A DNA stretch of 64,000 bases from assembly GCA_964624235.1 (NCBI GenBank), contig CAZUXY010000001.1:143288-207287 (forward strand), read 5' to 3'. Positions within the stretch are counted from its first letter, which is position 1. The number at the start of each line of letters is the position of its first letter. Below the pieces are notes generated by a model. It was not told where the DNA came from. It was given only the letters and a program-made list of their open reading frames with translations, and ran no database searches. This DNA comes from an uncultured Leptospirales bacterium. Lineage in GTDB: Bacteria > Spirochaetota > UBA4802 > UBA5368. A program made the translations under genes and the position numbers. This document shows positions 4,905-48,472 of this stretch, in pieces.

Positions 4905-6776
4905 TTGGATTTCTTTATGAAAAAAATCTTTGGTATTGTAATTGTTTTATCACTTACGGGATGCGGAAGCACCCTTTCTAATAAAAAAGCATTTCCCCCA
5001 TCAAAATCAACCGAAAGCTGGGTACTATACAGCAACGGATTGTTCCATCTGAACGCGAAGAATTACAAAACCGCGTTAAAATACCTTCATGAAGCGGAAA
5101 AGTCTAATACCGAACTTGACAGGGTATATTATCATATTGCTTTTTGTTATTATAATACTTATGATTATGATTCCGTAAAAAAATACTCAGAACTCGCAAT
5201 CAAACACAATCCCCGTTACACCAAGCCTTACTACCTGCTCTATTCGATGTACATGAACCTGCAGAATTATGAAAAGGCAGCAGCTATCCTTGAGACCTTG
5301 CGCCACCAGGAGCAGGACAACATCAATGTCAGCTACACACTGGGTACACTTTATTATTCAAGACTCAAACAATGGGACAACGCAGAAAAGACATTTAAAT
5401 CCATACTGGAAACCGCTTCAATAAAACCGGTGGATGACTATTTTCAGGAGCATTCAGCCTATTACCTCGGTCACATCTACTATTCAAAAGGCCAGGTCAA
5501 CAGTGCGATTGAGCATTTTAAACTGTGTTCCGAGATAAACCCCGATAATCATTCTGCGCTTTATGCACTTGCTATTCTCTACATGGACCGGTATGAAGTT
5601 GATGAATCACTGGAGTATGCTCTTCTTTATCTGCACTTTTTCCCTGACAATGTAAAAATCAATTCCATAACCGGAAGAATTTTATATTTAAAGAGCGACC
5701 GGAGAGCTTCGATACACCTGAAGAAAGCAATGTTCAACACCGGCTTTGATGGATTAATCGCAAGAGCTTTATACAACGAACTTCTCCATAAAGACAAAGA
5801 CGCAGTGGTACTGTTGAAAAAAGTCATTAAAGGCAATACAACCTACATCTCCCCTCACCTGGCCCTGGCAAGGATCAATCTGCGCAAAAATAATAAAACA
5901 GGTTCGGTAAGCGAGTTTTTTACCGCCGGAATACTGTTCTACCGCTATCGTTTGTATGATAATGCACGTGAAAGCTTCATTAAGGCGCTTTCGATAAATG
6001 ATAAAATCCCCGAATGTTATTTTTATCTCGCCAAAGTTTATGAGGAAACCGAAAGGTTCAGCCAGGCAATGGTAAATTATAAAAAGGTTCTGGAATTGAA
6101 ACCCTCAGCCGAAATTCTGATCCATATAGGCTATCTTTACAGCCTGAAAAGCAACTTCCATAACGCCACGCTGTACATGGATCGCGCCATAGAGATGGAC
6201 CCCAAGAATTCCAAATCATATTTTTTTAAAGGACTCATATTCACACAGATGGACCGTTATCCGGATGCGGAGAAGATGGTACGCCATGCAATTTCTCTCA
6301 ACGAAGAAAATGACGAATACCACTTTTACCTGGCAACCATTCTGGAGAAGCAGAACCGCTTCGATGAAACCGTCGTATCGTTGAAAAAAGCCATTCGGTA
6401 CAATCCTCAAAGCGCAAAATCATATAACTTCCTCGGATACCTTTATGCCGATAAGAATATGAACATTGATGAATCTATTTCCCTTATAAAAAAAGCTCTT
6501 GAATTCGAACCCGATAATGGAGCTTATCTGGATTCACTGGGATGGGCATACTACAGAAAAAAAGATTTTGACCTGGCATTGAAAAAATTGCTTGAGGCGG
6601 AACTGAAGCTTGACAGGGAAAAGAATCCCGATCCCGTTGTATATGATCATATAGGCGATACCTATAAAGAGCTGGGTAATTTTAAAAAGGCTCTGGAATA
6701 CTGGAAAAAGTCCGTAAAAATGAAAAAGGACACTAAAATTGAGAAAAAAATCAAAGGCATTAGAATTATTGAGTGA
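4905..6776 (+). CDS. TPR-repeat lipoprotein
   Basis: Signal peptide ending LTGCGS (lipobox), followed by many TPR-like Y/A/L-rich repeats. Confidence 0.75.
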   Translation: MDFFMKKIFGIVIVLSLTGCGSTLSNKKAFPPSKSTESWVLYSNGLFHLNAKNYKTALKYLHEAEKSNTELDRVYYHIAFCYYNTYDYDSVKKYSELAIKHNPRYTKPYYLLYSMYMNLQNYEKAAAILETLRHQEQDNINVSYTLGTLYYSRLKQWDNAEKTFKSILETASIKPVDDYFQEHSAYYLGHIYYSKGQVNSAIEHFKLCSEINPDNHSALYALAILYMDRYEVDESLEYALLYLHFFPDNVKINSITGRILYLKSDRRASIHLKKAMFNTGFDGLIARALYNELLHKDKDAVVLLKKVIKGNTTYISPHLALARINLRKNNKTGSVSEFFTAGILFYRYRLYDNARESFIKALSINDKIPECYFYLAKVYEETERFSQAMVNYKKVLELKPSAEILIHIGYLYSLKSNFHNATLYMDRAIEMDPKNSKSYFFKGLIFTQMDRYPDAEKMVRHAISLNEENDEYHFYLATILEKQNRFDETVVSLKKAIRYNPQSAKSYNFLGYLYADKNMNIDESISLIKKALEFEPDNGAYLDSLGWAYYRKKDFDLALKKLLEAELKLDREKNPDPVVYDHIGDTYKELGNFKKALEYWKKSVKMKKDTKIEKKIKGIRIIE

Positions 6777-7635
6777 TACATCAACATTCCGAACCACTTT
6801 TATTAAATCGCTAGCTTTCCTTCATATATTTGCGATATTTACGCTGACGATGTTTACATGCGCCGAGAAGCGGATGATCGTCGATAAGCGGCTTATGGTT
6901 TCCAGTGAGAAGAAATCCCGTGAACTGCTGGAGAGAACCCACACCATCAATAAACATTCACCGGAATTCTTCAGCGCTGCGTTTTCAGTGGACGGTATCT
7001 ACAACAAAAAAAGGATCACGTCCATTGGAACTGTTATGTACAAAAAAAAACCCCGGCTGATCAGATTGTCGTTTGTGGATGCGGTCTTTAAAAGCCCTAT
7101 TGTCACACTTATTCAGGATCGAGAAACCGTAAAGATCCATTTTCCTATTGAGAAAACACTCTATATCGACAACATCAATACCCTCGATCTCAGAAATTAT
7201 TTGAACTTTGATATTGAATTCAGCTTTTTCTACACTCTGACCGGGGGACAGATCCCGCTGCTGCCTGGTTTTGCCATCAAAAAGGAGCTTACCGAAGTCG
7301 GTGCCGATGCATCCGAGAAAGAGAGATGTTTCCTGATACTGGAGAACAGGGATTTCTTTCAGACTTTGTCTTTCAAAAATCAGATTCCCGACAAAATACT
7401 GTTTATCAATAAGGCAAGCAGAACCAGGATAGAGATTTATCTGGGCAGGCCGGAGATCAGGGGAGAGTCGGTATTCTTCAGGCAGATTCGTTTTGTTAAT
7501 GTTCAAAACGGAGATAAGATCAACTTCCTTTTCAAAAATCTTGATTATTCAAATGAACCCAGTGTCGCATCGATAACAACTTTAAAGACGGTCGATAAAA
7601 CCCGGGTTATACACATGGTTCCCCGGAAACGGTAA
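6739..7635 (+). CDS. Hypothetical protein, probable lipoprotein
   Basis: 298-aa ORF. N-terminal hydrophobic stretch LAFLHIFAIFTLTMFTC ends in Cys. Overlaps the upstream TPR gene by 38 bp; the exact start is uncertain. Confidence 0.45.
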   Translation: MRKKSKALELLSDTSTFRTTFIKSLAFLHIFAIFTLTMFTCAEKRMIVDKRLMVSSEKKSRELLERTHTINKHSPEFFSAAFSVDGIYNKKRITSIGTVMYKKKPRLIRLSFVDAVFKSPIVTLIQDRETVKIHFPIEKTLYIDNINTLDLRNYLNFDIEFSFFYTLTGGQIPLLPGFAIKKELTEVGADASEKERCFLILENRDFFQTLSFKNQIPDKILFINKASRTRIEIYLGRPEIRGESVFFRQIRFVNVQNGDKINFLFKNLDYSNEPSVASITTLKTVDKTRVIHMVPRKR

Positions 7636-9771: not shown

Positions 9772-11118
9772 ATGTGTGACACCATCGTCGCCACCGCCGA
9801 AGCCACCTTGGATAAAACAACAATCCTGGCGAAAAACAGCGATCGTGAACCCAATGAGGTTCAACTGCTGATGCACCTGCTCCCTGTAAAACATCAGAAG
9901 AACATGAAGGTTGAGTGTACTTACATCAGCATACCTCAGGCGCCCCGGACCAACGAGGTGCTTATATCCCGGCCTTTCTGGATGTGGGGCTGTGAAATGG
10001 GAGTCAATGAACACGGACTTGCCATAGGCAACGAAGCGGTTTTCACAAAGGAACCTTACAGAAAAACGGGCTTGACGGGGATGGATTTAATTCGCCTTGC
10101 CCTCGAGCGGTGCGCCGGCGCTGTAGAAGCGCTGTCATGTATTACCGATCTTTTGGCACAACACGGCCAGGGTGGGAAATGCGGATATACCGCCGGTTTG
10201 AAATACCATAATTCATTCATTATTGCCGATAAGAAAGAGGCATGGGTACTGGAAACGGCGGATTACCAGTGGGCGGCAGTTAAAGTCAGAGGGGTTCGAT
10301 CCATTTCAAACGGTCTAACCATAGAAGAACACTACGATCAGTCATCCAAGGGACTTGAAGACTATGCTTTACATAAAGGGTATTTGAAAAAGCATGAGAC
10401 ATTTAATTTCAGAAAAGCGTTTACCGATTCTTTTTACACCTATTTCAGTAAATGCAGTATACGCCAGTGCCGAACCACTGAACTTTTATCCGGACATGCC
10501 GGGAATATTACCCCTGAACTGATGATGTTTTTTCTCAGGGATCATGGCCCGGGCGAACGATATCTGCCCCCTCATGAGACCAGCATGGGAACCGTCTGCA
10601 TGCACGCATCCATGGGTCCTCTGAGGCCCAGCCAGTCGACTTCGGCGCTGGTTGCACATCTAAGAAAAAAGACTCCTACATACTGGGCTACCGGCTCATC
10701 GGGAACCTGCACCGGCATATTCAAGCCCTTCTATCTGAAAGGCAATAAAATTGATTTTCTTCCTCATGAAGCGGGTTCCCGGTTTGACCACGGAATTCCG
10801 TGGTGGAAGCATGAGCTTCTGCACAGAAGAGCCCTGATGAAATATTCTTTCTGGCAGAATAACCTTATGATCGAAAGAAATGCTCTGGAAAAGAGTTTTA
10901 TCGAGATGGATACAAAAGCGATGAAATCTTCAGCCGGCACCGGACATGTACACAGACTTGCCGGCCTCTCCAGACAATGCTTCAATGAAGCAGCGACCGC
11001 GACCGATGAATGGAACGAAAAACTGAAAAACGCTCCTGGGGATAACGATGTGCCATATCTATACCGTCGCTTCTGGGCGTCCCAGAATCGCAAGGCCGGT
11101 ATTGCCGGTCAGTTATGA
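9772..11118 (+). CDS. Peptidase C69 family (Ntn-hydrolase dipeptidase/secernin-like)
   Basis: Starts MCDTIVAT..., the Met-Cys nucleophile start typical of C69 enzymes. 448 aa. GGAG RBS. Confidence 0.65.
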   Translation: MCDTIVATAEATLDKTTILAKNSDREPNEVQLLMHLLPVKHQKNMKVECTYISIPQAPRTNEVLISRPFWMWGCEMGVNEHGLAIGNEAVFTKEPYRKTGLTGMDLIRLALERCAGAVEALSCITDLLAQHGQGGKCGYTAGLKYHNSFIIADKKEAWVLETADYQWAAVKVRGVRSISNGLTIEEHYDQSSKGLEDYALHKGYLKKHETFNFRKAFTDSFYTYFSKCSIRQCRTTELLSGHAGNITPELMMFFLRDHGPGERYLPPHETSMGTVCMHASMGPLRPSQSTSALVAHLRKKTPTYWATGSSGTCTGIFKPFYLKGNKIDFLPHEAGSRFDHGIPWWKHELLHRRALMKYSFWQNNLMIERNALEKSFIEMDTKAMKSSAGTGHVHRLAGLSRQCFNEAATATDEWNEKLKNAPGDNDVPYLYRRFWASQNRKAGIAGQL

Positions 11119-36824: not shown

Positions 36825-38012
36825 TTATATCTGTACGCTTTTTTTAACAGACTCGCGCACTTCCCGGCAGATCTGAAGTTCCTCGTTGGCGGCTATTACC
36901 ATACCGGCGATAGGGCTTGTGTGTTTTGTAATAAAAGAGCGATGGTTGTTATTTGATTTGTCATCAACCTCTATTCCCAGGTACGAGAAATGAGAAAGCA
37001 CTTCTTTTCTAAGTTTCCATGAATGCTCTCCTATCCCCCCGGTGAACACGATTGCGTCGATGCCGTTCATTACGGCTATATAAGAACCGATTGTAGCGAC
37101 CAGCCTGTTGATAAGTATACTGTTCGCCAGACCCGCCCTGGTGTCGCCTGCAAGGGCCAGTTCTTCTATGGTACGGTAATCACTGCTTTTCCCGCTTATG
37201 CCGAGGAGACCTGACTGCCTGTTTATAATCTCCTTCGTTTGCTCCGTGGTGAACCCCTGCGTGAGCAGAAAGAGTATAATCTCAGGATCGAAGGAACCGC
37301 TTCGGGTTCCCATGGGCAGCCCTTCCAGCGGTGTAAAGCCCATTGATGTATCAAAACTCTCCCCGTGGCGGACGGCGCAGATACTCTGGCCGTTGCCGAG
37401 GTGACAGGTGATTATCTTCAAATCGGATGCGGGTTTTCCCATCAATTCGGCGGCCCTGTACGTCACGTACTTGTGACTGGTTCCGTGAAACCCGTATTTT
37501 CTGATGCCGAATTTGTGATAAAGATCCAGTGGCAGCGCATATAGAAATATTTCTTCCGGCATGGTTTGATGGAAAGCGGTATCGAAAACGGCGAATTGGG
37601 GTATACCAGGAAGCGCACCCGCAAGTATTTCTATGCAGGACACATTAATGGGATTATGGAGCGGCGCGAGGTAAGAAATCTTCTTAAGTTCATCGACCAC
37701 CCCGCGGGTTATTCCGGTAATCGACTTATATCGTTCCCCACCGTGGACCACCCGGTGACCTACGGCGGTTATATCTTTACGACTCTTCAGGACCTGAAGC
37801 GTTTCCATCTGGTTCAGCATGTCTGTAATAGCATCCCCATGGGTACTGATAATGCAGTTTTCCTTCCCGGAGTTGATGTTTCTTAAACAGGACCCCGTAA
37901 ATGCCGTTCCAATGCCGTCATAATGTCCCCTGATCAGCACCTCTTCGGTAGCACCGTTGAAGAGTTGGAATTTCAGCGAACTGCTGCCGGCGTTTACCAC
38001 CAGTATTTTCAT
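36825..38012 (-). CDS. ackA: Acetate kinase
   Basis: MKILVVNAGSSSLKFQLF N-terminus and ...ITCHLGNGQS... are acetate/propionate kinase signatures. About 395 aa from the ATG at 38012. Confidence 0.85.
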   Translation of the reverse strand: MKILVVNAGSSSLKFQLFNGATEEVLIRGHYDGIGTAFTGSCLRNINSGKENCIISTHGDAITDMLNQMETLQVLKSRKDITAVGHRVVHGGERYKSITGITRGVVDELKKISYLAPLHNPINVSCIEILAGALPGIPQFAVFDTAFHQTMPEEIFLYALPLDLYHKFGIRKYGFHGTSHKYVTYRAAELMGKPASDLKIITCHLGNGQSICAVRHGESFDTSMGFTPLEGLPMGTRSGSFDPEIILFLLTQGFTTEQTKEIINRQSGLLGISGKSSDYRTIEELALAGDTRAGLANSILINRLVATIGSYIAVMNGIDAIVFTGGIGEHSWKLRKEVLSHFSYLGIEVDDKSNNNHRSFITKHTSPIAGMVIAANEELQICREVRESVKKSVQI

Positions 38013-38052
38013 GAATGTGTCCGAGACCGCCTTTATTCCTCTAGACGGCACT

Positions 38053-38083
38053 GCAGGGCCGCGGCTTTGAACCGCGGCCCTGC
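38053..38083 (-). promoter_or_regulatory. GC-rich intercistronic hairpin between xsc and ackA
   Basis: GCAGGGCCGCGG-CTTTGAA-CCGCGGCCCTGC is a perfect 12-bp stem, extendable to about 15 bp. No U-tract follows. Confidence 0.4.
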
Positions 38084-38094
38084 GGCCAGGAGGT

Positions 38095-39819
38095 TTATAC
38101 CATACTTAAGTGTTTGTATTTCGGCAAATAACGTACCGCCGGTTTGAACGCGTCTCTTCTGAAAGGTTCGGCAAGCACCTTCTCCCCTCCCTCGATAACG
38201 GCGTTTATCACCACCGGTTTACCGCATTTTACCGCCTCCTGAACCACATCCTTGACCTCTTTATAATCCTCTACCTTGAAGCCTACGGCTCCCATATCAC
38301 GGGCAAGCTGGGCGTAATCAGGATTGGTGGGAAGGTTAACGCCGACGTACCGGTTTTGAAAGAAATCGATCTGGTTCTTTTTCTCAGCACCCCATTCCAG
38401 ATTGTTGAATACCACCGCAATGACGGGTATATTTTCCCTTACCGCGGTCATCACTTCACTGAGACCGCTGATACCCCATGCTCCGTCACCCTGCAACGCA
38501 AAAACCGGCTTATCGGGCGCTCCCACCTTTGCGCCGATGGCGGCACCGTAAGCAAACCCGCAGTTTCCCCAGCTGAGCGCAGCGATATGCTGACGGGGGC
38601 CGTTGAACTTGAGATAGCTGTTGCAGATGGAACAGTTGTTTCCGATATCAGTCGCCACCAGGGATCCCGCCGGCATGGCTTCCGACAGTTCTTTTATGAA
38701 CCTTCTGGGATGCATGAGCTTATTGGTTGAAGATGACCATTTGTCCAGTTCATCCTTCCAGGCCTCTTTCTCTTTCTGAACGTCCTTGAGTCTGGACTCG
38801 TCACTCTTCCTTTCAGGTGCAATTTCCTTTATTGCAGAAAGCAGCTGATGGGCAAACTGTTTTGCATCCGCCATTATTCCCAGATCGGTTTTTTTGGAAA
38901 GACCGAACTGCGACGCATCGATATCGACCTGTATTATTTTTGCGTTCTTGGGCCAGTAATCGAAGTCATATTGCGGTAAAGTTCCAAAGGGCCCCAGACG
39001 GGTTCCCAGGGCCAGTACCAGATCGGATTTGACTATGGTTCTCATTGCTGCTTTGGATCCGCAATACCCGATAGGTCCCACCGCCAGCGCATGATCGGCC
39101 GGAAAACTGTCGTTATGCAAATAGGTGTTTACCACCGGGGCGGTGAGGTATTCGGCAAGGGCTCTGGTTTCATCATGCGCATTTGACATAGAAACCCCTC
39201 CTCCCGCGAGGATTACGGGATACTTCGCCTTTAAAAGTATCTCGGCCGCCGTCCTGATCTGGTCCACCGATCCCGGTCCGTAGACAACATCTTCCGTGGG
39301 ATATATGTCATCATTGACTTCACCGTAAAAATAATCCCTGGGGATGTTCAATTGCGCCGGCCCACCGAGCAGCTTCGACATATAAAAACATCGTCGTGCC
39401 AATTCGGCCATTCGTTCAGGCCTGTTGACTCTGACCTGATACTTGGTACACTTTTCAAACCAGGGCATCTGGTCCAGTTCCTGGAAGCCGCCCTTACCCA
39501 GACCCATACTGCCCGTTTCAGGGGTAATGGCTATGACCGGAGAATGGGCCCAGAATGCCGCCGTTATAGCAGAAATAAAATTGGCCGCACCTGGACCGTT
39601 CTGTGCAATACATACTTGAGGTTTACCGGTAACACGGGCATATCCGTCCGCCGCGTGGGCGGCCGCCTGTTCATGAGCAACCATTACAAATCGTATCCCC
39701 GCATCGGGAAACAGATCAAGGGCATCCATAAAGGCGCTTCCAACTATTCCGAAGACATTAGTAATCCCTTCAGCTACAAGAGTCTCAACTAGTGCCTCAG
39801 AGGGTGTCATTTTCGGCAT
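38095..39819 (-). CDS. xsc: Sulfoacetaldehyde acetyltransferase-like ThDP enzyme (Xsc family)
   Basis: MPKMTPSEALVETLVAEGITNVFGIVGSAFMDALDLFPDAGIRF..., ...NGPGAANFISAITAAFWAHSPV..., ...DIGNNCSI..., ...EWGAEKKN... and ...EPFRRDA... match my recollection of characterised Xsc sequences much better than acetolactate synthase. The ATG at 39819 has an AAGGAGGTG RBS. Confidence 0.65.
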   Translation of the reverse strand: MPKMTPSEALVETLVAEGITNVFGIVGSAFMDALDLFPDAGIRFVMVAHEQAAAHAADGYARVTGKPQVCIAQNGPGAANFISAITAAFWAHSPVIAITPETGSMGLGKGGFQELDQMPWFEKCTKYQVRVNRPERMAELARRCFYMSKLLGGPAQLNIPRDYFYGEVNDDIYPTEDVVYGPGSVDQIRTAAEILLKAKYPVILAGGGVSMSNAHDETRALAEYLTAPVVNTYLHNDSFPADHALAVGPIGYCGSKAAMRTIVKSDLVLALGTRLGPFGTLPQYDFDYWPKNAKIIQVDIDASQFGLSKKTDLGIMADAKQFAHQLLSAIKEIAPERKSDESRLKDVQKEKEAWKDELDKWSSSTNKLMHPRRFIKELSEAMPAGSLVATDIGNNCSICNSYLKFNGPRQHIAALSWGNCGFAYGAAIGAKVGAPDKPVFALQGDGAWGISGLSEVMTAVRENIPVIAVVFNNLEWGAEKKNQIDFFQNRYVGVNLPTNPDYAQLARDMGAVGFKVEDYKEVKDVVQEAVKCGKPVVINAVIEGGEKVLAEPFRRDAFKPAVRYLPKYKHLSMV

Positions 39820-39909
39820 AATATACACCTCCTTATCCTTTTAAAATATGATTTATGCATAGTGCACAAGAACACCGCTGCATGAGCTTTTACAATTTAC
39901 ACCTGCTTT

Positions 39910-39944
39910 AATGAATATAATTCATATAATGAATTATATTCATT
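39910..39944. promoter_or_regulatory. Perfect 16-bp inverted repeat (candidate operator) in the xsc / FAD-FeS divergent control region
   Basis: AATGAATATAATTCAT-ATA-ATGAATTATATTCATT. It contains two TATAAT hexamers and abuts a TTGACA hexamer (39949-39954, minus strand) placed to serve the xsc promoter. Confidence 0.5.
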
Positions 39945-40193
39945 TTGATGTCAACATTTTTTCAAAGTAATTATGTTACTGCGCCCTGATAAATATAAAG
40001 TATATTTCGCAGTTTTCACTTTCATTAACCCAAAACAGAAAAAGTACCTGACACCTAATATCCGGTACTCTGATCTCGTGGATTTTTTGATTGACGGTAT
40101 TTATGTAGGCCATAGAACTGCAAATTTTGTGCTATACTGTCTTTATCAAATCATATGACCTGGTTTGTTGTCTACACATAAGAGGACGTCTGG

Positions 40194-43100
40194 ATGATGA
40201 AAAAAGATTTTAAGTTCAGGGAAATTCCATATAACTATACGTCGTTTTCCGACCGTGAAATAATACTCAAATATTACGATGAAGAAACCCTTGGAATTCT
40301 GGATTCACTGCGCAGCAAGCGGATCACCGGCAGGAGCGCAAAGCTGCTGTTCGAGGTGATCGGTGATATTTTTATTATTGAAAGAAACCCCTATATTTAC
40401 AATGACCTTCTGGAAAACAGGAAAAAACGTAATCGTCTGAGAAAACTGCATAACGCCCGTCTGGATATCATTGAACAAGGCGCAAACGGCAATACCCTGG
40501 TGTTGAAAGTGGTGGGAAAAACCCGCACCCTCGATAATAAATTCTTTGAAAGTTTTCCCCACGAAAAAAAATTCAGAGATAAAACCTGCAAGGCACTGAA
40601 AGCTGTAACATCAATCAATAACATTCATTTTACCGCATTTCATAAAGTATCCCATGCCACCGATTCATCAGACTGGCGTGTGGAATATCCTGCCGTTATA
40701 GTATATCCCGACTCTGCAGATGAAATACCCGGACTTGTCCACGCGGCAAAAAAACTTGGCCTCTCGATCATACCAAGGGGTGGCGGTACGGGACTTACCG
40801 GTGGCGCTGTGCCGGTACGTAAAAATACCATGATCATTAATACTGAAAAACTCAACCGTATAGGGACTATCGATACAGTAACGGAAAACGGCATAACATT
40901 CCCTGTCATCAGTATGGAAGCCGGAGCAGTTACTGAAGAGGTAATCGACCACTGCCATGAAAAGGGATACATATTCGCAACCGACCCCACATCCGCATGG
41001 GCATCTACTATTGGTGGGAACATCGCTGAAAACGCCGGTGGAAAAAAATGTGTAATCTGGGGAACGGCCATTGATAACATATATTCCTTCAGAATAGTGA
41101 ACGCACAGGGTCAACTGCTGGAGGTTAAACGACAAAACCATCCCTATCGCAAGATCCTTCCTGATGATGCGGTTTCTTTTGACGTAAACCTGATTACCGG
41201 ACGTAAGCAACAGAGGCTGAAATCGGTTCACCTCAACGGTACCGATATAAGAAAAAAGGGACTGGGCAAGGACATCACAAACAAATCACTTAAAGGAACG
41301 CCGGGGATACAGAAAGAAGGAGGCGATGGTATAATCGTATCGGCGACCTTTGTATTGTACCAGCCCTTTGCCTTCTGTAGAACCGTCTGCCTGGAGTTTT
41401 TCGGCAATAATCTCATTAATGCATCCAGGGCTATAGTTGATATCAAGAATAATTTCGAAAATAATAATGAAGTATTCCTTACCGCACTTGAACATTTTGA
41501 TGAAAAGTACGTACATGCGGTAAATTACCGAAATAAATCCAACCGGAACGAGATTCCAAAGGCGGTTCTGTTGATTGATATCGAGTCAAATAATAATGAC
41601 ATGCTTGATATCGCGGCGAAAAACATCATCTCGCTGGTTGAAAAATACAACACTGAAGCTGTTACAGCCGGTGATGACAAGGAACGCGAACTGTTCTGGA
41701 AAGACAGGAAGAATCTCGGTGCCATTGCAAAACACACCAATGCATTCAAACTCAATGAAGACATCGTTATCCCTATGGATAAGCTTCCCGATTTCGCCGA
41801 TTTCATTGAAAAGCTCAATCTTCAAAAAGAACTGGAAAATAATATCGGAATTCTTGAAAACCTGAAGGACTATCTGCTTGAACTACGCGTGAAACAGAAC
41901 GAGCATTTCGGTAACATCAGAATAGATTCATTCCTTGATTTACTGGAAAACAAAAAAACTGAATATCTTGAATTCCTCGAAAACCTGGATAATTCCTGCC
42001 GGATATTGAAGGTTTTTCCAAACAACGGCGATAAAGACAAAACCGTCTTCAAGATGATCCAGGATGGAGAGCTTTCTGTATCCTTCGATGAAGACGTAAT
42101 GCGGCAATTTATACGGATGTTTCACGGTTATGACGAAATACTGGAACGTTTTCAAGATATCACGAGCGAGGAAGCTAAAAGAAAAATAATCATCGCTACC
42201 CACATGCATGCGGGCGACGGCAATGTACATGTGAATATCCCGGTTCATTCAAATGACTATATAATGATGCAGGAAGCAGATGAAACGGCGGGTATAGTGA
42301 TGAAAAAGACCGTGGATCTCGGCGGGGTGATATCAGGAGAACACGGCATCGGACTCACCAAACTAAGGTTCATCGGCCAGGATGTCCTTGACGGCTATGC
42401 CGAATACAAGCGGGAAAATGACCCTGAAAACCTTTTTAATCCGGGGAAACTCACCTTAGATTTCCCGCTGCACAGGATATACACTCCATCTTTCAATCTC
42501 CTTGAACTGGAAGCCTTTATCCTGAAAGCAACCGATCTGGAAAAACTCTCCATGTCCATCGCGTCATGCGTACGCTGCGGAAAGTGCAAGTCCGTATGTA
42601 ACACCCATTACGCCGGAGGAACGATGTTTTATAATCCCAGGAACAAGATCCTCGGGGTAGGGCTCATTATTGAGGCAGTACTTTACGATGCTCAGACATC
42701 GAATTCCCTTTCTTTTCGTAATTTCAGAAAACTGCAGGAGATCTCAGACCATTGCACCATGTGCCATAAATGCCAAGTGCCATGCCCGGTCAAAATTGAC
42801 TTTGGCAACATTACCCTTACCATAAAAGAGCTGATGGTACACAGGAGAAAATCCAAGTTCAAGCTGGTCACATGGGTGACGCTTTTTTACCTCAGGAGGA
42901 AGGGTTTCTATATAAACAAAGTTTTTCGTTTGGGATTACTGAGACTGGGATATACCGCCCAGAGGGCCGGCTACATTATGCACCGACCCTTTAAAAGGAT
43001 CACCGCATCGCTGTTACCCGGCATCAATGCTTTTCTTAACAGTAAACTTCCCAGAACGGGCAACAAGTCGGTTAGAGAACTGTTCGGCCTCAAAGGCAGC

Positions 43101-43910
43101 AACACGTTTTTTGCATTCGAAAACCATGATCTACCTGTTAAGAAAAGTGTGTTCTATTTCCCGGGCTGCGGTTCCGAAAGAATGTTCCCTGAAATCAGCC
43201 TGGCGGTCCTTGCGCTGCTTTACAATGCCGGTATACGAGTGGTTATACCGCCCGAATACCTGTGCTGCGGATATCCTTTACTTGCAAACGGCAGGGTCGA
43301 ACAGTCCGATATCAAGAGCTTTGAAAACCGCGTAATACTGCACAGGGTCGCAGACATCATCGGATATATGGATATAAGCAGTGTCATTGTCTCATGCGGC
43401 ACCTGTTACGAAATGCTGGAAAAATACGAAGTCGGTAATATCTTCAACGGTGCGGAACTCATCGATATTAACGAATTTCTCGCTAGAGAAAAACTGTATG
43501 TTATTGACGGGCAGGAAAAATCACCGCTGGTTTATCACGACCCCTGCCATACCCCGCTGAGACACATGGGTTACGAAGCGGCTTTTCACAACCTGTTTGG
43601 CCGTACCCCCGTTTTGATTCCAAATTGCTGCGGTGAAGGGGGTACTCTGGCGCTTTCTACACCTGAAATATCAAACCTTTTGCGCGAAAGGAAGAGAATG
43701 AATATTATTTCCAGGGCGGTTCCCACACGCGCCAACATCCTCACCACATGTCCAAGCTGTGTACAGGGGCTGTCAAAAACAAACGGGCACCCCCATTTTG
43801 CCGGCAAATCGCTGACGGTGTACTTTGCCGAACGTGTACTTGGTAAACACTGGAACAAAGAATTTCTTTCTAAGGCTACACAGGGTGGTGTCGAGCGGAT
43901 GATATTCTAG
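40194..43910 (+). CDS. FAD-linked oxidase fused to 4Fe-4S/CCG-domain Fe-S oxidoreductase (YdiJ/GlcD-GlcF-fusion-like D-2-hydroxyacid dehydrogenase), 1238 aa
   Basis: FAD-PCMH motif IIPRGGGTGLTGGAVP. GEHGIGLTKLRF...NPGKL oxidase C-terminus. CVRCGKCKSVC and CTMCHKCQVPCPVKID ferredoxin motifs. Two CCG repeats (CCGYPLL, CCGEGGT). About 160 aa of unassigned N-terminus and about 300 aa of low-complexity insertion. Confidence 0.8.
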   Translation: MMKKDFKFREIPYNYTSFSDREIILKYYDEETLGILDSLRSKRITGRSAKLLFEVIGDIFIIERNPYIYNDLLENRKKRNRLRKLHNARLDIIEQGANGNTLVLKVVGKTRTLDNKFFESFPHEKKFRDKTCKALKAVTSINNIHFTAFHKVSHATDSSDWRVEYPAVIVYPDSADEIPGLVHAAKKLGLSIIPRGGGTGLTGGAVPVRKNTMIINTEKLNRIGTIDTVTENGITFPVISMEAGAVTEEVIDHCHEKGYIFATDPTSAWASTIGGNIAENAGGKKCVIWGTAIDNIYSFRIVNAQGQLLEVKRQNHPYRKILPDDAVSFDVNLITGRKQQRLKSVHLNGTDIRKKGLGKDITNKSLKGTPGIQKEGGDGIIVSATFVLYQPFAFCRTVCLEFFGNNLINASRAIVDIKNNFENNNEVFLTALEHFDEKYVHAVNYRNKSNRNEIPKAVLLIDIESNNNDMLDIAAKNIISLVEKYNTEAVTAGDDKERELFWKDRKNLGAIAKHTNAFKLNEDIVIPMDKLPDFADFIEKLNLQKELENNIGILENLKDYLLELRVKQNEHFGNIRIDSFLDLLENKKTEYLEFLENLDNSCRILKVFPNNGDKDKTVFKMIQDGELSVSFDEDVMRQFIRMFHGYDEILERFQDITSEEAKRKIIIATHMHAGDGNVHVNIPVHSNDYIMMQEADETAGIVMKKTVDLGGVISGEHGIGLTKLRFIGQDVLDGYAEYKRENDPENLFNPGKLTLDFPLHRIYTPSFNLLELEAFILKATDLEKLSMSIASCVRCGKCKSVCNTHYAGGTMFYNPRNKILGVGLIIEAVLYDAQTSNSLSFRNFRKLQEISDHCTMCHKCQVPCPVKIDFGNITLTIKELMVHRRKSKFKLVTWVTLFYLRRKGFYINKVFRLGLLRLGYTAQRAGYIMHRPFKRITASLLPGINAFLNSKLPRTGNKSVRELFGLKGSNTFFAFENHDLPVKKSVFYFPGCGSERMFPEISLAVLALLYNAGIRVVIPPEYLCCGYPLLANGRVEQSDIKSFENRVILHRVADIIGYMDISSVIVSCGTCYEMLEKYEVGNIFNGAELIDINEFLAREKLYVIDGQEKSPLVYHDPCHTPLRHMGYEAAFHNLFGRTPVLIPNCCGEGGTLALSTPEISNLLRERKRMNIISRAVPTRANILTTCPSCVQGLSKTNGHPHFAGKSLTVYFAERVLGKHWNKEFLSKATQGGVERMIF

Positions 43911-44120: not shown

Positions 44121-44858
44121 CTATCGAAGCGCTTCCTTGGAAAACAGCGAATCTCTAAGCGGCATATTATAATCAACTGCTTTTATTATCAGTTCGGTCC
44201 GTCCTTTGCCGTCTCCCTGATGCATAACCGCTATGAAAGGAGTTAAAATCCCCTTAATTCTTTTTACATCATGGTTTTCAAGGTACTTGTGCAGTGATCC
44301 GTTCTTGTATATGTCAATACGCACAACGAAATAATCGGATTTTCTTACATACAGAATTGATTTTTCATAAACCCACTTACTTTGCTTCTTGACCGCCTGT
44401 ACCATGTAACAATCCGCACCGACCGCACTGCCGTCTCCAAGATATTTGTACTCATATCCATCAAGTTCCCTTGTTTCCAGGTCCTCATAGTAAAAATGGG
44501 AATTAACAAAGGGCTTGTCCTTATCGTCAGATATTATCCTTTTGACCTTCCCTGATGAAAGCATCAGCCACTGATCATCGTCTCTGCCCTTGTACGAATG
44601 GGTCAGCAGTTTAATCCTGGTGGGTTTGGTGAAAGAAATGAGTATCCGGTCGTTTCCACCTTGCTTTTTTGTCAGCATTTCCAGTTCTTTGACAGTGGTT
44701 CTTCCTCCCTTGACAATATTCATTGCAGCATTGCTTCTTCCGCTGTCCGGTTTGGAAAGCCTGTCGTTTTTTTCCATTATCTCACGCCCCGTAAGCGCAA
44801 AAACAGGAGAGATAGAAAAAAACAGAATCAATGCAGCGAGAGTTAGCATTCTTTTCAT
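44121..44858 (-). CDS. Outer-membrane lipoprotein-sorting (LolA-like) family protein
   Basis: Signal peptide MKRMLTLAALILFFSISPVFA and a 245-aa beta-rich sequence. Typical partner downstream of MMPL exporters. Confidence 0.6.
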   Translation of the reverse strand: MKRMLTLAALILFFSISPVFALTGREIMEKNDRLSKPDSGRSNAAMNIVKGGRTTVKELEMLTKKQGGNDRILISFTKPTRIKLLTHSYKGRDDDQWLMLSSGKVKRIISDDKDKPFVNSHFYYEDLETRELDGYEYKYLGDGSAVGADCYMVQAVKKQSKWVYEKSILYVRKSDYFVVRIDIYKNGSLHKYLENHDVKRIKGILTPFIAVMHQGDGKGRTELIIKAVDYNMPLRDSLFSKEALR

Positions 44859-44983
44859 TGAAACCTCCTTGTAAATAGTATCACTGGGTATAACCCGGAA
44901 AACTTTGTTATGAATTCCCTGACAAACTCATTCGGTAACTGAAAATTCATCACGGGAATCATATGCAAAATTCATAACCGCAA

Positions 44984-47656
44984 TCAGCAATCACTCTCTT
45001 TAATGTTAAAAAACCTGCCTATATAAAAATACCTCCAGAACCATGATGAGGATTTAGACTTTTCAAGCGATACACCCGTAGTGATAATCACAGAGGGGAG
45101 AATCAGTAGAGCACCCATGGTTGTGGCTATCATGGTATTGCCCGCAAGTATACCGAAATATACAACCGGGCTGAAACTGGATACCACCAGCACCGAGAAT
45201 CCGAAAATGAGCGCCAGTGAAGTATAAATAATGGCCTTTCCCGATGTCGAGATGGTTTTTGCTATTATTTCTTCAGGAGAGAGATTGTGACTATTATAAT
45301 GCCTATAGGTGTTTAAAAAGTGGATAGTATCATCGACCCCTATTCCAATGGTCAGTGATGCAATGATTGCGGTGGCAATATCAAGGCGGATCCCGGTCCA
45401 TCCCATCAGGCCGAAATTAATAAGTATCGCGACCGATATCGGGATCATGGATAACAGGCCAGCTTTAAGGTTCTTAAAGAGTAATACCACAACCAGACAT
45501 ACGGCCGCCAGACTGAATAGTAAACTGAATAACTGTCCCTGCACCACATACTCCGACAATCGAATAAATATTGAAGGTTCTCCGGTGATTTTATATGCTG
45601 CCGGTCCGGTCAGTTTAGAGTTCAGATATGCAGCTACCCTGTCATGAATAATCTTTGTTTCAGCGGTTCCAAGAATTTTATTTCCGGATTCACCCAGCCT
45701 TGCGAAAATAAGCGCGGTACGATATTCCGGGTCCAGGTACGGTTCAAACTCGTCAGCCCTTCCGTCAAAATCATCATCCGCGCCGGTATATATTTCCAGA
45801 TAATCCATGATATCAACACGGGAATCGGGAATCCTGTAATAATTTATACTATCGTTGTTCATCGCCATGTGCATGGTCTTGATTATATCGGGGAAAGCAT
45901 CGGTACGGCCGATATGCAGATCCTCTGTGCTGGTCAGCCAGTGCCTGATTTCTTCCACGGTTCTGAGAAATTCAGGATTCTTTATTCCATCACTTTCCCC
46001 GGAATCGATCAGTATACTCATACCATATGACCCACCGTATTTCTCAGCAATCAACCGGCTGCTGGTACGCACATAATCGTGTTCCTTGAAATAAGCCGAA
46101 AGAGTGGTTTCCACCTTTACCCTGGTCAGTCCCACCATTGATATAATCAGTATTAACACTGTAACGGCAAGAACCGAACGCGGATGGCGTGTAGATAACC
46201 GTATGAAAACCCCCACCAGCAGGTCTATACGAGTTTTTACCTGATCACCGTTACGTTTAACGATTTTTTTCTTGGTTCTTGAATGTGGGAGAAGCATTAG
46301 ACAGGCCGGTATGAGCGAAGAAGAAATAATTACTGAGAATAAAACCCCGACTGCCGAAAAAAGACCCCATTCCCGAATACCCACCACCTGGTTGGTCAGC
46401 AGGGATATAAAACCGATGAAAGTGGTGCCGCCTGCCAGTATTATCGTAACACTGATATGGGACATTGTACTGCGTAACCCTTCGCTTTTACCCATGCGCC
46501 CTATTTCAGAAAAGTACAGATAATACTGGTTTAAAATGTGAATGGAATAAGAACTCCCGACGGCGATGATCAGGGGCGGAAGGGATATGCCGATAATCGT
46601 TATGCTGTATCCAAGATACCCCATCAGTCCGAGTACCCAGATATCCCCGATAATTAATGTACAGAATGGTAAAATGACCCCCCGCACCGAACGGAAATTC
46701 AGGTAAAACACAATTACGATAACAAGTATGACCAGAGGCAGGAAAGTATACAGATCACGGTGCATATAATCATTCATCTTGATCCCGATGATCGGCACGC
46801 CCTGCGGTGTGATGGTAAGCGCTTTATACCCTGCGGCAATATCCCAGACCCTTTTCGTTATATCGTCATCCTTCTTGATGTTTTCCAGCTTCACCATGAC
46901 ACAGAAATCGGTGATCACACCGGTGCGAGGGTCGGTAGAGTACAGGGCCCCCTTGAACGCCGGGTTTTTGGTAAGGCGCTTTTGAAAATTGAGTATATCC
47001 TTAGGTGAAGCCGGCAACTTGCGTTTACCCAGGAGATCCTTATCGATTATTTCTTTTGCCGTCAATGTGTCATCTGTGCCACTAATGTCCTTTGCAGTTA
47101 AAGGAGATAAAACCGCATCTATATGACGTTTTTTCTTAAGTTTTGCTGTTTCTACGATATGATCATGTATCCGTTTTAGGTTGCTCTTGCTGAGCTTAGT
47201 ACCAAGCCTGTAATGCGCTTGTATGTATCTTTCCAACTCTCGTGAGAATGGGGCATCATCTCTGAAATTGTTCAAGAGGACCGCGGGTTCAATTTCACCG
47301 CTTGATGAGAGATCACGCAAACGTTGTATCCTTCGGTTTTCCTTCGATTCGTCGGAATCCTTGTATTCCTCAAGATCGGTGATCAGGTCGTTTACGAGCG
47401 AAAGTGTCTTGGGCGACCAGAGGTCATTACATGTGATGTTCATAATGATGAACTTACCGAGATTGCCGTAGACTTTTTTTACTTCTTCATAATAGAGATA
47501 CTGGGTATCCTTTTTGGGCATCATGACTTCCAGCGAATTATCAAAATTTAGCCGCGGCACACCTGTTCCAAGCACCAGGGTTATTGCCGAAATGATAACG
47601 ATTATTTTTTTCGGATGGCTCAGTACATATTTAATATAACGATCAAGCATATTCAT
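44984..47656 (-). CDS. MMPL/RND-superfamily exporter (HpnN-like lipid transporter)
   Basis: 890 aa with two 6-TM bundles separated by large periplasmic loops. The start overlaps the TetR stop (ATGA). Confidence 0.85.
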   Translation of the reverse strand: MNMLDRYIKYVLSHPKKIIVIISAITLVLGTGVPRLNFDNSLEVMMPKKDTQYLYYEEVKKVYGNLGKFIIMNITCNDLWSPKTLSLVNDLITDLEEYKDSDESKENRRIQRLRDLSSSGEIEPAVLLNNFRDDAPFSRELERYIQAHYRLGTKLSKSNLKRIHDHIVETAKLKKKRHIDAVLSPLTAKDISGTDDTLTAKEIIDKDLLGKRKLPASPKDILNFQKRLTKNPAFKGALYSTDPRTGVITDFCVMVKLENIKKDDDITKRVWDIAAGYKALTITPQGVPIIGIKMNDYMHRDLYTFLPLVILVIVIVFYLNFRSVRGVILPFCTLIIGDIWVLGLMGYLGYSITIIGISLPPLIIAVGSSYSIHILNQYYLYFSEIGRMGKSEGLRSTMSHISVTIILAGGTTFIGFISLLTNQVVGIREWGLFSAVGVLFSVIISSSLIPACLMLLPHSRTKKKIVKRNGDQVKTRIDLLVGVFIRLSTRHPRSVLAVTVLILIISMVGLTRVKVETTLSAYFKEHDYVRTSSRLIAEKYGGSYGMSILIDSGESDGIKNPEFLRTVEEIRHWLTSTEDLHIGRTDAFPDIIKTMHMAMNNDSINYYRIPDSRVDIMDYLEIYTGADDDFDGRADEFEPYLDPEYRTALIFARLGESGNKILGTAETKIIHDRVAAYLNSKLTGPAAYKITGEPSIFIRLSEYVVQGQLFSLLFSLAAVCLVVVLLFKNLKAGLLSMIPISVAILINFGLMGWTGIRLDIATAIIASLTIGIGVDDTIHFLNTYRHYNSHNLSPEEIIAKTISTSGKAIIYTSLALIFGFSVLVVSSFSPVVYFGILAGNTMIATTMGALLILPSVIITTGVSLEKSKSSSWFWRYFYIGRFFNIKESDC

Positions 47657-48246
47657 TACCTTCCGGCTTTAATTGCCAATGAAGACATCAGCATGGTTCG
47701 GAATGACGCGATTGTTTCTTCAATGGTAAGATTGTTTTTCAGTATAAATTCGGGCTTGAAAACGGTTTCGCTGGCCCCTTTGAAAAAACCTGATACGAAA
47801 CAGGGATTCAATTCTATGAACAATCCCATTTTTACACCCCTGGTATAGTTTTCCATAAACAGATTGCTCAGTTCATTAATAAAAACGGTAAGCTTGGCGG
47901 CGATATCCGGATAAAACCTGTGTACATCCTCCAGAAGGATCGTGGAAAAATTCCTGAAGAGTGAAAAGGTAATTTCAAAACAATGATGGAGTTTTTGCAG
48001 AGGATTTTCTTCTGATTTATGGACACTATCAAAGCTGGATTTCAGAAGTGAAAAGATACCATCAGCTATTTCGTATACCATATCATCCTTGCTCTGATAG
48101 TATTTATAAATGGTTTTTTTGGATATACCGCATTCATGGGCCAGTGTGTCGATGGTAATACGTTTAAGCCCGTAAATAAAGGAAAGATCACGGAATTTTT
48201 CGAATATCTGTTGTTTTACCCTGTCGTTCATGGCGTTGATACTCAA
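47656..48246 (-). CDS. TetR/AcrR family transcriptional regulator
   Basis: HTH: ITIDTLAHECGISKKTIYKYYQSKDDMV. Confidence 0.85.
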   Translation of the reverse strand: MSINAMNDRVKQQIFEKFRDLSFIYGLKRITIDTLAHECGISKKTIYKYYQSKDDMVYEIADGIFSLLKSSFDSVHKSEENPLQKLHHCFEITFSLFRNFSTILLEDVHRFYPDIAAKLTVFINELSNLFMENYTRGVKMGLFIELNPCFVSGFFKGASETVFKPEFILKNNLTIEETIASFRTMLMSSLAIKAGR

Positions 48247-48472
48247 AGAAAGGAAACCAAGAAAACTTAAATAGTTTCCTCATTTCTTGTCAAGGCAAAT
48301 ACTCATAATATAAATAAAAGTTCTGATTGTTGAATATATAATTAATATTAACAGTTTATTATTCGAGTATGTATATAGAGTTCACACCGCCTTGATTCAA
48401 ATTCAATGAGAACATAATGATTAGTAAAAAAGTACACATTATGACAACAAGCAACTGTACAGGAGAATTGTT

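Follow-up and report, generated by a model that had tools for sequence, protein, structure and literature searches.

The window analysed here comprises 64,000 nt of contig CAZUXY010000001.1 from an uncultured Leptospirales bacterium. The gene for sulfoacetaldehyde acetyltransferase (xsc) is followed on the minus strand by that for acetate kinase (ackA), and the intergenic region on the other side of xsc, which contains a 35-bp palindrome, is bounded by a divergent gene (Table 1). The xsc product scores 759 bits against the TIGR03457 equivalog (cutoff 676) and 845 bits against NF005713; the family scores confirm the identities that the initial annotation had given to xsc and ackA. The gene caller placed the ackA start at the position equivalent to 38012, the second of the two possible start codons. 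The divergent gene encodes a large fusion protein and is referred to below as the DUF3683 gene. It is divergent from xsc in five of five syntenic Spirochaetota loci, and a link of its product to sulfonate or 2-hydroxyacid oxidation is possible. A 61-residue open reading frame between the two genes (39973-40158, plus strand) was predicted as a gene in metagenome assemblies from the same strain; it is probably spurious, because the orthologous intergenic regions show no conservation there.

Beyond the DUF3683 gene, on the minus strand, lies an operon that encodes a TetR-family protein, an MMPL/RND-like transporter and a LolA-like protein (44121-48279), which is syntenic with one related locus (L004). 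Just upstream of the TetR start (around 48280-48310) is the inverted repeat GGAAAC-N7-GTTTTC, possibly the operon's own operator.

Table 1. Location of the features discussed; positions refer to the window unless a locus is named
Feature	Position	Strand	Basis or remark
ackA, acetate kinase, second gene of the proposed operon	36825-38051	-	Domain and family matches; start GTG 38051 or ATG 38012
xsc, sulfoacetaldehyde acetyltransferase, 574 aa, first gene of the proposed regulated operon	38095-39819	-	TIGR03457, NF005713, Pfam domains
Ribosome-binding site GGAGG	39828-39832	-	8 nt before the xsc ATG; direct reading; conserved in the five-locus alignment
Perfect 35-bp palindrome, candidate tandem operator with four half-sites	39910-39944		Arm length exceeds all simulations
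Promoter-distal box (box 2 in xsc orientation), ATGAAT-ATA-ATTCAT	39911-39925		Core TGAATATAATTCA at 39912-39924; exact match; half-sites near-invariant in 15 loci
Predicted -10 hexamer CATTAT	39926-39931	-	Spacer 17 nt; junction between the boxes; 10/12 consensus matches; prediction only
Promoter-proximal box (box 1 in xsc orientation), ATGAAT-TAT-ATTCAT	39929-39943		Core TGAATTATATTCA at 39930-39942; exact match; half-sites near-invariant in 15 loci
-35 hexamer TTGACA of the predicted xsc-ackA promoter	39949-39954	-	Consensus scan; perfect in 15/15 xsc loci with the dual box
Fusion protein, 1238 aa: DUF3683, FAD_binding_4, FAD-oxidase_C, 4Fe-4S dicluster, CCG, DUF3400	40194-43910	+	Divergent from xsc
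LolA-like protein	44121-44858	-	Same operon as the window TetR
MMPL/RND-like transporter	44984-47656	-	Same operon as the window TetR
TetR-family ORF, only one in the window	47659-48279	-	First of TetR/MMPL/LolA-like operon; 7.7 kb from the palindrome
Second operon in related genomes	L010: 13247-18991; L020: 13080-18579; L114: whole locus
Palindrome TGACTGGnCGTCCAGTCA upstream of xsc	L001: ~5940-6000; L002: ~6740-6800; L003: ~9850-9900
Arrays of 18-bp period	L127: 1849-1987; L164: 1659-1725; L105: 2459-2561

The palindrome and the predicted xsc promoter

The palindrome has the sequence AATGAATATAATTCAT-ATA-ATGAATTATATTCATT. Its arms (39910-39925 and 39929-39944) are complementary at 16 of 16 positions with a gap of 3 nt, which confirms the flawless symmetry first annotated, and by length it exceeds every other perfect inverted repeat of the window. 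In first-order Markov simulations (n = 40, 64 kb each, gap up to 10 nt) perfect arms reached at most 12 nt, and 13 nt at the local intergenic composition (33% GC), as compared to the 16 nt observed. The repeat is thus unusual even for AT-rich DNA, as had been claimed, and the simulations together with the conservation in orthologous loci (see below) rule out a chance palindrome. The internal sequence is periodic, with four ATGAAT/ATTCAT hexamers of alternating orientation forming four half-sites. These pair into two 15-bp sub-palindromes, ATGAAT-N3-ATTCAT, with a centre-to-centre distance of 18 bp. The two boxes are the only exact matches to TGAAY-N3-RTTCA in the whole window; relaxed matching for further half-site copies gave nine matches against 6.7 expected, which is the level of chance. 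The arrangement suggests that the tandem palindromic boxes are probably occupied by two dimers, not bound as one long dyad.

The promoter predicted for xsc by consensus scan is TTGACA-17-CATTAT. The TTGACA (minus strand, 39954-39949) is located 4 nt from the edge of the palindrome and 6 nt from the box core; it does not directly abut the palindrome, as the initial annotation had it. Measured from its proximal edge, the palindrome lies about 90 nt away from the xsc ATG (39819), a little closer than the approximately 100 nt given there. Both TATAAT hexamers previously noted within the palindrome are present, but they lie on the plus strand, not the strand of xsc, and are not likely to serve as -10 elements. 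The xsc strand carries a single TATAAT, 10 nt from the -35 hexamer, which is the wrong spacing. The embedded TATAAT sequences were ruled out as the -10 hexamer on these grounds of strand and spacing. Judged from the position of CATTAT, transcription would start at about 39919, inside the distal box. The boxes cover the spacer, the -10 hexamer and the +1 position of this predicted promoter, so the proposed overlap with the xsc promoter holds for the core promoter indicated by the consensus scan. Since the operator overlaps the predicted -10 hexamer and start site, repression is implied, and the geometry of the site favours repression over activation.

Conservation across xsc loci

The window was compared with 80 xsc loci from reference genomes, a set that does not include the window's own genome. 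Contigs encoding an identical Xsc protein (L081-L084) derive from the same strain and were discarded as uninformative. The window is syntenic with loci from four Spirochaetota metagenome-assembled genomes (L004, L006, L007, and L008), with protein identities of 50-72%. Common to the five loci are GDSL lipase, epimerase, ackA and xsc, in this order, and then the divergent DUF3683 gene; the synteny of L004 also takes in the LolA-like, MMPL and TetR genes. The alignment of the xsc/DUF3683 intergenic regions of the five syntenic loci has a mean column identity of 39% and contains a single extended conserved island. This island consists of an A-tract, TTGACA, and TGAAY-N3-RTTCA-N5-TGAAY-N3-RTTCA. 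About ten further Spirochaetota xsc loci, which have other upstream neighbours, share the layout of TTGACA and two boxes. Conservation in orthologous xsc upstream regions, which the initial annotation had proposed as a check, is thus found in the four syntenic loci and some ten more. In 15 xsc loci, a perfect TTGACA is located 6-15 nt upstream of box 1. The half-site columns are near-invariant across the xsc loci; the spacers and flanks vary.

The dual-box motif can be written as TGAAYNNNRTTCANNNNNTGAAYNNNRTTCA. In the 1.33 Mb of loci and in the window, all zero-mismatch dual boxes are beside xsc or beside a second operon described below; together with the simulations, this answers the earlier concern that similar sites might be frequent by chance. 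From the sequence comparisons, 39910-39944 is very probably a genuine operator for xsc. The first interpretation of the site, as the target of a dimeric repressor or activator acting in trans over the xsc promoter, is supported by the phylogenetic footprint, and is refined by it in that two boxes would be bound and repression is favoured.

The window differs from its four syntenic relatives in a 6-nt deletion between the -35 hexamer and box 1 (39943-39949), with 6 nt as compared to 12 nt in the other loci. The deletion places the predicted -10 hexamer at the junction between the boxes, away from its position within box 1 in those loci.

The site is located in an intergenic region shared with the DUF3683 gene, whose divergent position is kept in all five syntenic loci, and it could also, or instead, control that gene; alternatively, it could be an activator site. 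The site is about 250 bp from the ATG of the DUF3683 gene, however, and some ten other loci pair the same operator with xsc and have no DUF3683 gene. Its position is always just downstream of an xsc-oriented TTGACA, over the -10 and +1 positions, which is the geometry of a repressor site. Control of the DUF3683 gene or activation is improbable on this evidence, and an operator for the repression of xsc is the preferred assignment.

The 35-mer of the window is predicted to form a perfect 16-bp stem (-14.3 kcal/mol), and a long hairpin or cruciform might itself be the functional element, either as a DNA structure or as an RNA structure in the 5'-untranslated region. The related sites do not retain such a stem. 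Across the 14 sites compared, pairing between the arms holds for 8-10 of the 10 half-site columns, against only 1-4 of the 6 remaining ones, and the predicted hairpins are much weaker (about -4.5 to -11 kcal/mol). If transcription starts near 39919 as predicted, the transcript would include just one half of the palindrome. A scan of 39700-40300 gave no terminator-like site, and no Rfam family was matched at E ≤ 1; with the stem unconserved, an intrinsic terminator or a known structured RNA was rejected. A function of the long hairpin itself is hardly credible in view of these data. As pairing outside the half-sites is lost in relatives, the flawless 35-bp symmetry is particular to this genome. 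The conserved feature, as the alignments present it, is a set of four protein-type half-sites and not a long hairpin.

The Xsc sequences closest to that of the window (85-86% identity) come from three loci of Desulfomonilaceae (L001-L003), not of Spirochaetota. The dual-box motif is absent upstream of xsc in these three loci; a different conserved palindrome, TGACTGGnCGTCCAGTCA, is found there downstream of a TTGAC-like -35 hexamer. They were therefore rejected as regulatory orthologues in spite of having the closest Xsc. The different palindrome at the loci with the closest Xsc suggests that xsc has moved between phyla and come under a different regulator.

Association with a TetR clade

Most Spirochaetota loci contain a second dual box at a distance of 1.5-3 kb, which precedes an operon whose last gene encodes a TetR-family regulator. 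The gene order of this second operon is an SDR, an ALS/HACL/OXC-like TPP enzyme, an MFS anion transporter, a second SDR, and TetR. Its sites follow a perfect TTGACA at 6-32 nt; the sites in L020 and L022, at 6-7 nt, have a short spacing like that of the window. The TPP enzyme is 27% identical to Xsc, and its best NCBIfam matches, PRK05858 (389 bits, cutoff 587) and 2-hydroxyacyl-CoA lyase (329 bits, cutoff 600), are both below cutoff. The second operon may supply Xsc with sulfoacetaldehyde by an as yet undescribed route. A literature search on the SDR/TPP/MFS operon found nothing relevant. No homologues of the second operon are present in the 64-kb window.

Of the 80 loci, 24 encode a homologue of this xsc-linked TetR (41-75% identity) no more than 10 kb from xsc. 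Both the TetR gene and the motif occur in 14 loci, the TetR gene only in 10, the motif only in 7, and neither in 49 (Fisher p = 5e-5 over the 80 loci, a statistic that ignores phylogeny). Of the seven loci with the motif only, three are on truncated contigs and four belong to the syntenic clade of the window. The ten loci with the TetR gene only have no recognisable site. In Desulfobacterales, a variant motif, nGAAC-N3-GTTCG-N5-TGAAT-N3-ATTnn, is located directly upstream of the homologous TetR gene, after TTGACA ... TATAT. The variant has the same two-box, 18-bp architecture and is in an autoregulatory position, in loci where TetR has its own promoter.

The motif was also used on its own, independently of xsc, to scan metagenomes, which gave 80 readable loci. 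Of these, 28 carry a TetR-family open reading frame whose HTH region begins at most 300 bp from the site, and mostly no more than 60 bp from it, where about three would be expected at random placement. Only two of these loci are xsc loci, which indicates that the two-box layout is a general operator type of a TetR clade. Some dual-box matches in the metagenomes belong to long arrays with an 18-bp period and up to eight consecutive matches, located on low-GC contigs and unrelated to xsc (Table 1).

Among proteins of solved structure, FadR of Bacillus halodurans (5gp9/5gpc) comes closest to the xsc-linked TetR, with E = 7.5e-13. In the complex with DNA (5gpc), the FadR operator GATGAATGAATACTCATTCAT is bound by two dimers; each monomer reads ATGA(A/G)T, with Gly42 and Tyr45 contacting the bases (PMC5397183). 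The contact of Gly42 is to the G at the third position of the hexamer. The recognition helix of the xsc-linked TetR, GTIYLYF, is identical to that of FadR, including the base-contacting Gly42 and Tyr45, although the GTIYxYF helix is widespread among TetR proteins and does not prove specificity. Three of the five phosphate-contacting residues of FadR are also kept. The four ATGAAT/ATTCAT hexamers of the window match the hexamer read by the FadR monomer. The protein binding the palindrome probably belongs to this FadR-like TetR clade. The xsc-linked regulator was rejected as a FadR orthologue, as it scores only 61.8 bits against the NCBIfam model FadR_Bac (NF053878, cutoff 200) and the layout of the half-sites differs.

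The 64-kb window contains no gene homologous to that of the xsc-linked TetR, and none is located within 10 kb in the four syntenic loci. The cognate repressor would therefore be located elsewhere in the genome and act in trans; the genome presumably contains such a TetR gene. The earlier statement that no regulator gene is adjacent holds for a regulator of the cognate type, but an unrelated TetR gene (47659-48279) is located 7.7 kb from the palindrome.

This gene, the sole TetR-family open reading frame in the window, could encode the binder, and the synteny of TetR, MMPL, LolA-like, DUF3683 and xsc genes is kept in L004. Its product, however, is only 20-27% identical to the xsc-linked TetRs, and in its recognition helix, KKTIYKYY, the base-contacting glycine is replaced by lysine. 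No ATGAAT box is located upstream of the gene, which has the different repeat GGAAAC-N7-GTTTTC instead, and the co-location with a transporter operon is typical of local efflux regulators. We consider the window TetR to be an unrelated local regulator of a different subfamily, and very unlikely to be the protein that binds the palindrome.

The operator could instead be bound by a regulator of another family (ArgR-like, or Xre-, MarR- or Rrf2-type), with the association with TetR being indirect. Besides the lack of a cognate TetR in the window and its four syntenic relatives, 52 of the 80 metagenome matches are without a nearby TetR gene, and the TGAAT/ATTCA half-sites resemble ARG boxes. The ARG boxes of ArgR/AhrC are 18-bp elements with a TGAAT-N4-ATTCA core; they occur in pairs 2-3 bp apart, with centres about 21 bp apart. 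The window site has in common with them the half-sites and the tandem palindromic boxes over the promoter, but its half-sites are separated by N3 and its centres by 18 bp, its genes are xsc and ackA as opposed to arginine genes, and the motif co-occurs with TetR genes and not with argR. An ARG box was rejected on these differences in spacing and regulated genes. Against any other family stand three independent associations with TetR (the second operon, the Desulfobacterales sites in autoregulatory position, and 28 of the 80 matches found by motif alone) and the agreement of the hexamer with that read by the closest solved TetR relative. A regulator from outside the TetR family is unlikely, though of the alternatives considered it carries the most weight. 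The FadR-like TetR clade is retained as the source of the binder in what follows.

Proposed mechanism and comparison with known systems

In our model, which we judge likely, the palindrome is a tandem operator on a sigma-70-type xsc-ackA promoter for two FadR-like TetR dimers, with the repressor encoded in trans. The sequence, its conservation, its position on the predicted promoter and its statistical association with the TetR clade are observed; binding, stoichiometry, repression, the ligand and a TetR gene of this clade in the genome are inferred. Each box would bind one dimer, so that every monomer reads an ATGAAT hexamer of its own. Together the dimers would cover the spacer, the -10 hexamer CATTAT and the transcription start, and so keep RNA polymerase out. 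The ligand would be a small molecule, probably an intermediate from organosulfonate catabolism, that binds to the C-terminal domain of the repressor and spreads the two HTH domains, with release of the DNA, as shown for FadR. From the derepressed operon, Xsc would split sulfoacetaldehyde into acetyl phosphate and sulfite, and AckA would make ATP from the acetyl phosphate. The repressor gene would lie outside the 64-kb window; in related genomes, the repressor would be the product of the last gene of the second operon, which is under the same operator.

Several features are shared with FadR (YsiA) of Bacillus, an acyl-CoA-responsive TetR repressor. Both sites consist of the hexamer ATGA(A/G)T in inverted repeats and are located on or next to the promoter; two dimers per operator are seen in the FadR structure and would be expected at the window site. 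The FadR operator, in contrast, consists of two overlapping 16-bp units of 6-4-6 type, shifted by about 5 bp within 21 bp, whereas the window has two separate 6-3-6 units 18 bp apart. The regulons differ as well, with fatty-acid degradation for FadR and sulfonate catabolism (xsc-ackA) in the window.

In the TetR/tetO and QacR/IR1 systems, 15-bp-class palindromes are bound by HTH dimers, with two operators or dimers per promoter. Repression there is by promoter occlusion and is relieved by a ligand, and the regulator gene is often autoregulated. The window site shares the 15-bp-class palindromes and their number per promoter and, under the proposed mechanism, would share occlusion of the promoter and relief by a ligand; it differs in the sequence of the half-sites and in having no divergently adjacent gene for a cognate regulator, which would be encoded elsewhere, outside the 64-kb window. 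The mechanism is conventional for the TetR family, and the regulatory element is a solid but fairly ordinary one.

TauR is a sulfonate-responsive activator of MocR/GntR type that acts on tau/xsc genes in Alphaproteobacteria. To our knowledge, it and a few local regulators, all from Proteobacteria, are the known regulators of xsc. TauR differs from the regulator proposed here in being an activator, in its protein family and in its site architecture; xsc in Spirochaetota and Desulfobacterales is linked to a TetR-type gene, and nothing comparable to a TauR-like arrangement was seen at these xsc loci. In the literature searched, we found no description of a TetR-type xsc regulator or of this combination of regulator, operator and regulon.

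Xsc has the central place in the desulfonation of taurine, isethionate, sulfoacetate, and C3 sulfonates, and provides sulfite to sulfidogenic anaerobes. The site gives a precise candidate operator-repressor pair for anaerobic Spirochaetota and Desulfobacterota, its motif is a handle for finding the remaining regulon by motif search, and the pair might be developed into a sulfonate-responsive biosensor. The uncharacterised co-regulated SDR/TPP/MFS/SDR operon of the relatives is the more interesting lead, since it may encode a new sulfonate pathway. It is possible, and we put it forward only tentatively, that these elements together make up a sulfoacetaldehyde regulon of the TetR family, so far undescribed, in anaerobic Spirochaetota and Desulfobacterota. 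In that case the repressor would be the first sensor of TetR type for an organosulfonate or a metabolite derived from a sulfonate, and the second operon a new TPP-dependent route from imported sulfonate to sulfoacetaldehyde.

Within the proposed operon, a perfect GC-rich 12-bp inverted repeat (GCAGGGCCGCGG ... CCGCGGCCCTGC, with a 7-nt loop) is located between the xsc stop codon and ackA (38053-38083). It may form an intercistronic stem-loop that acts as an attenuator or mRNA stabiliser.
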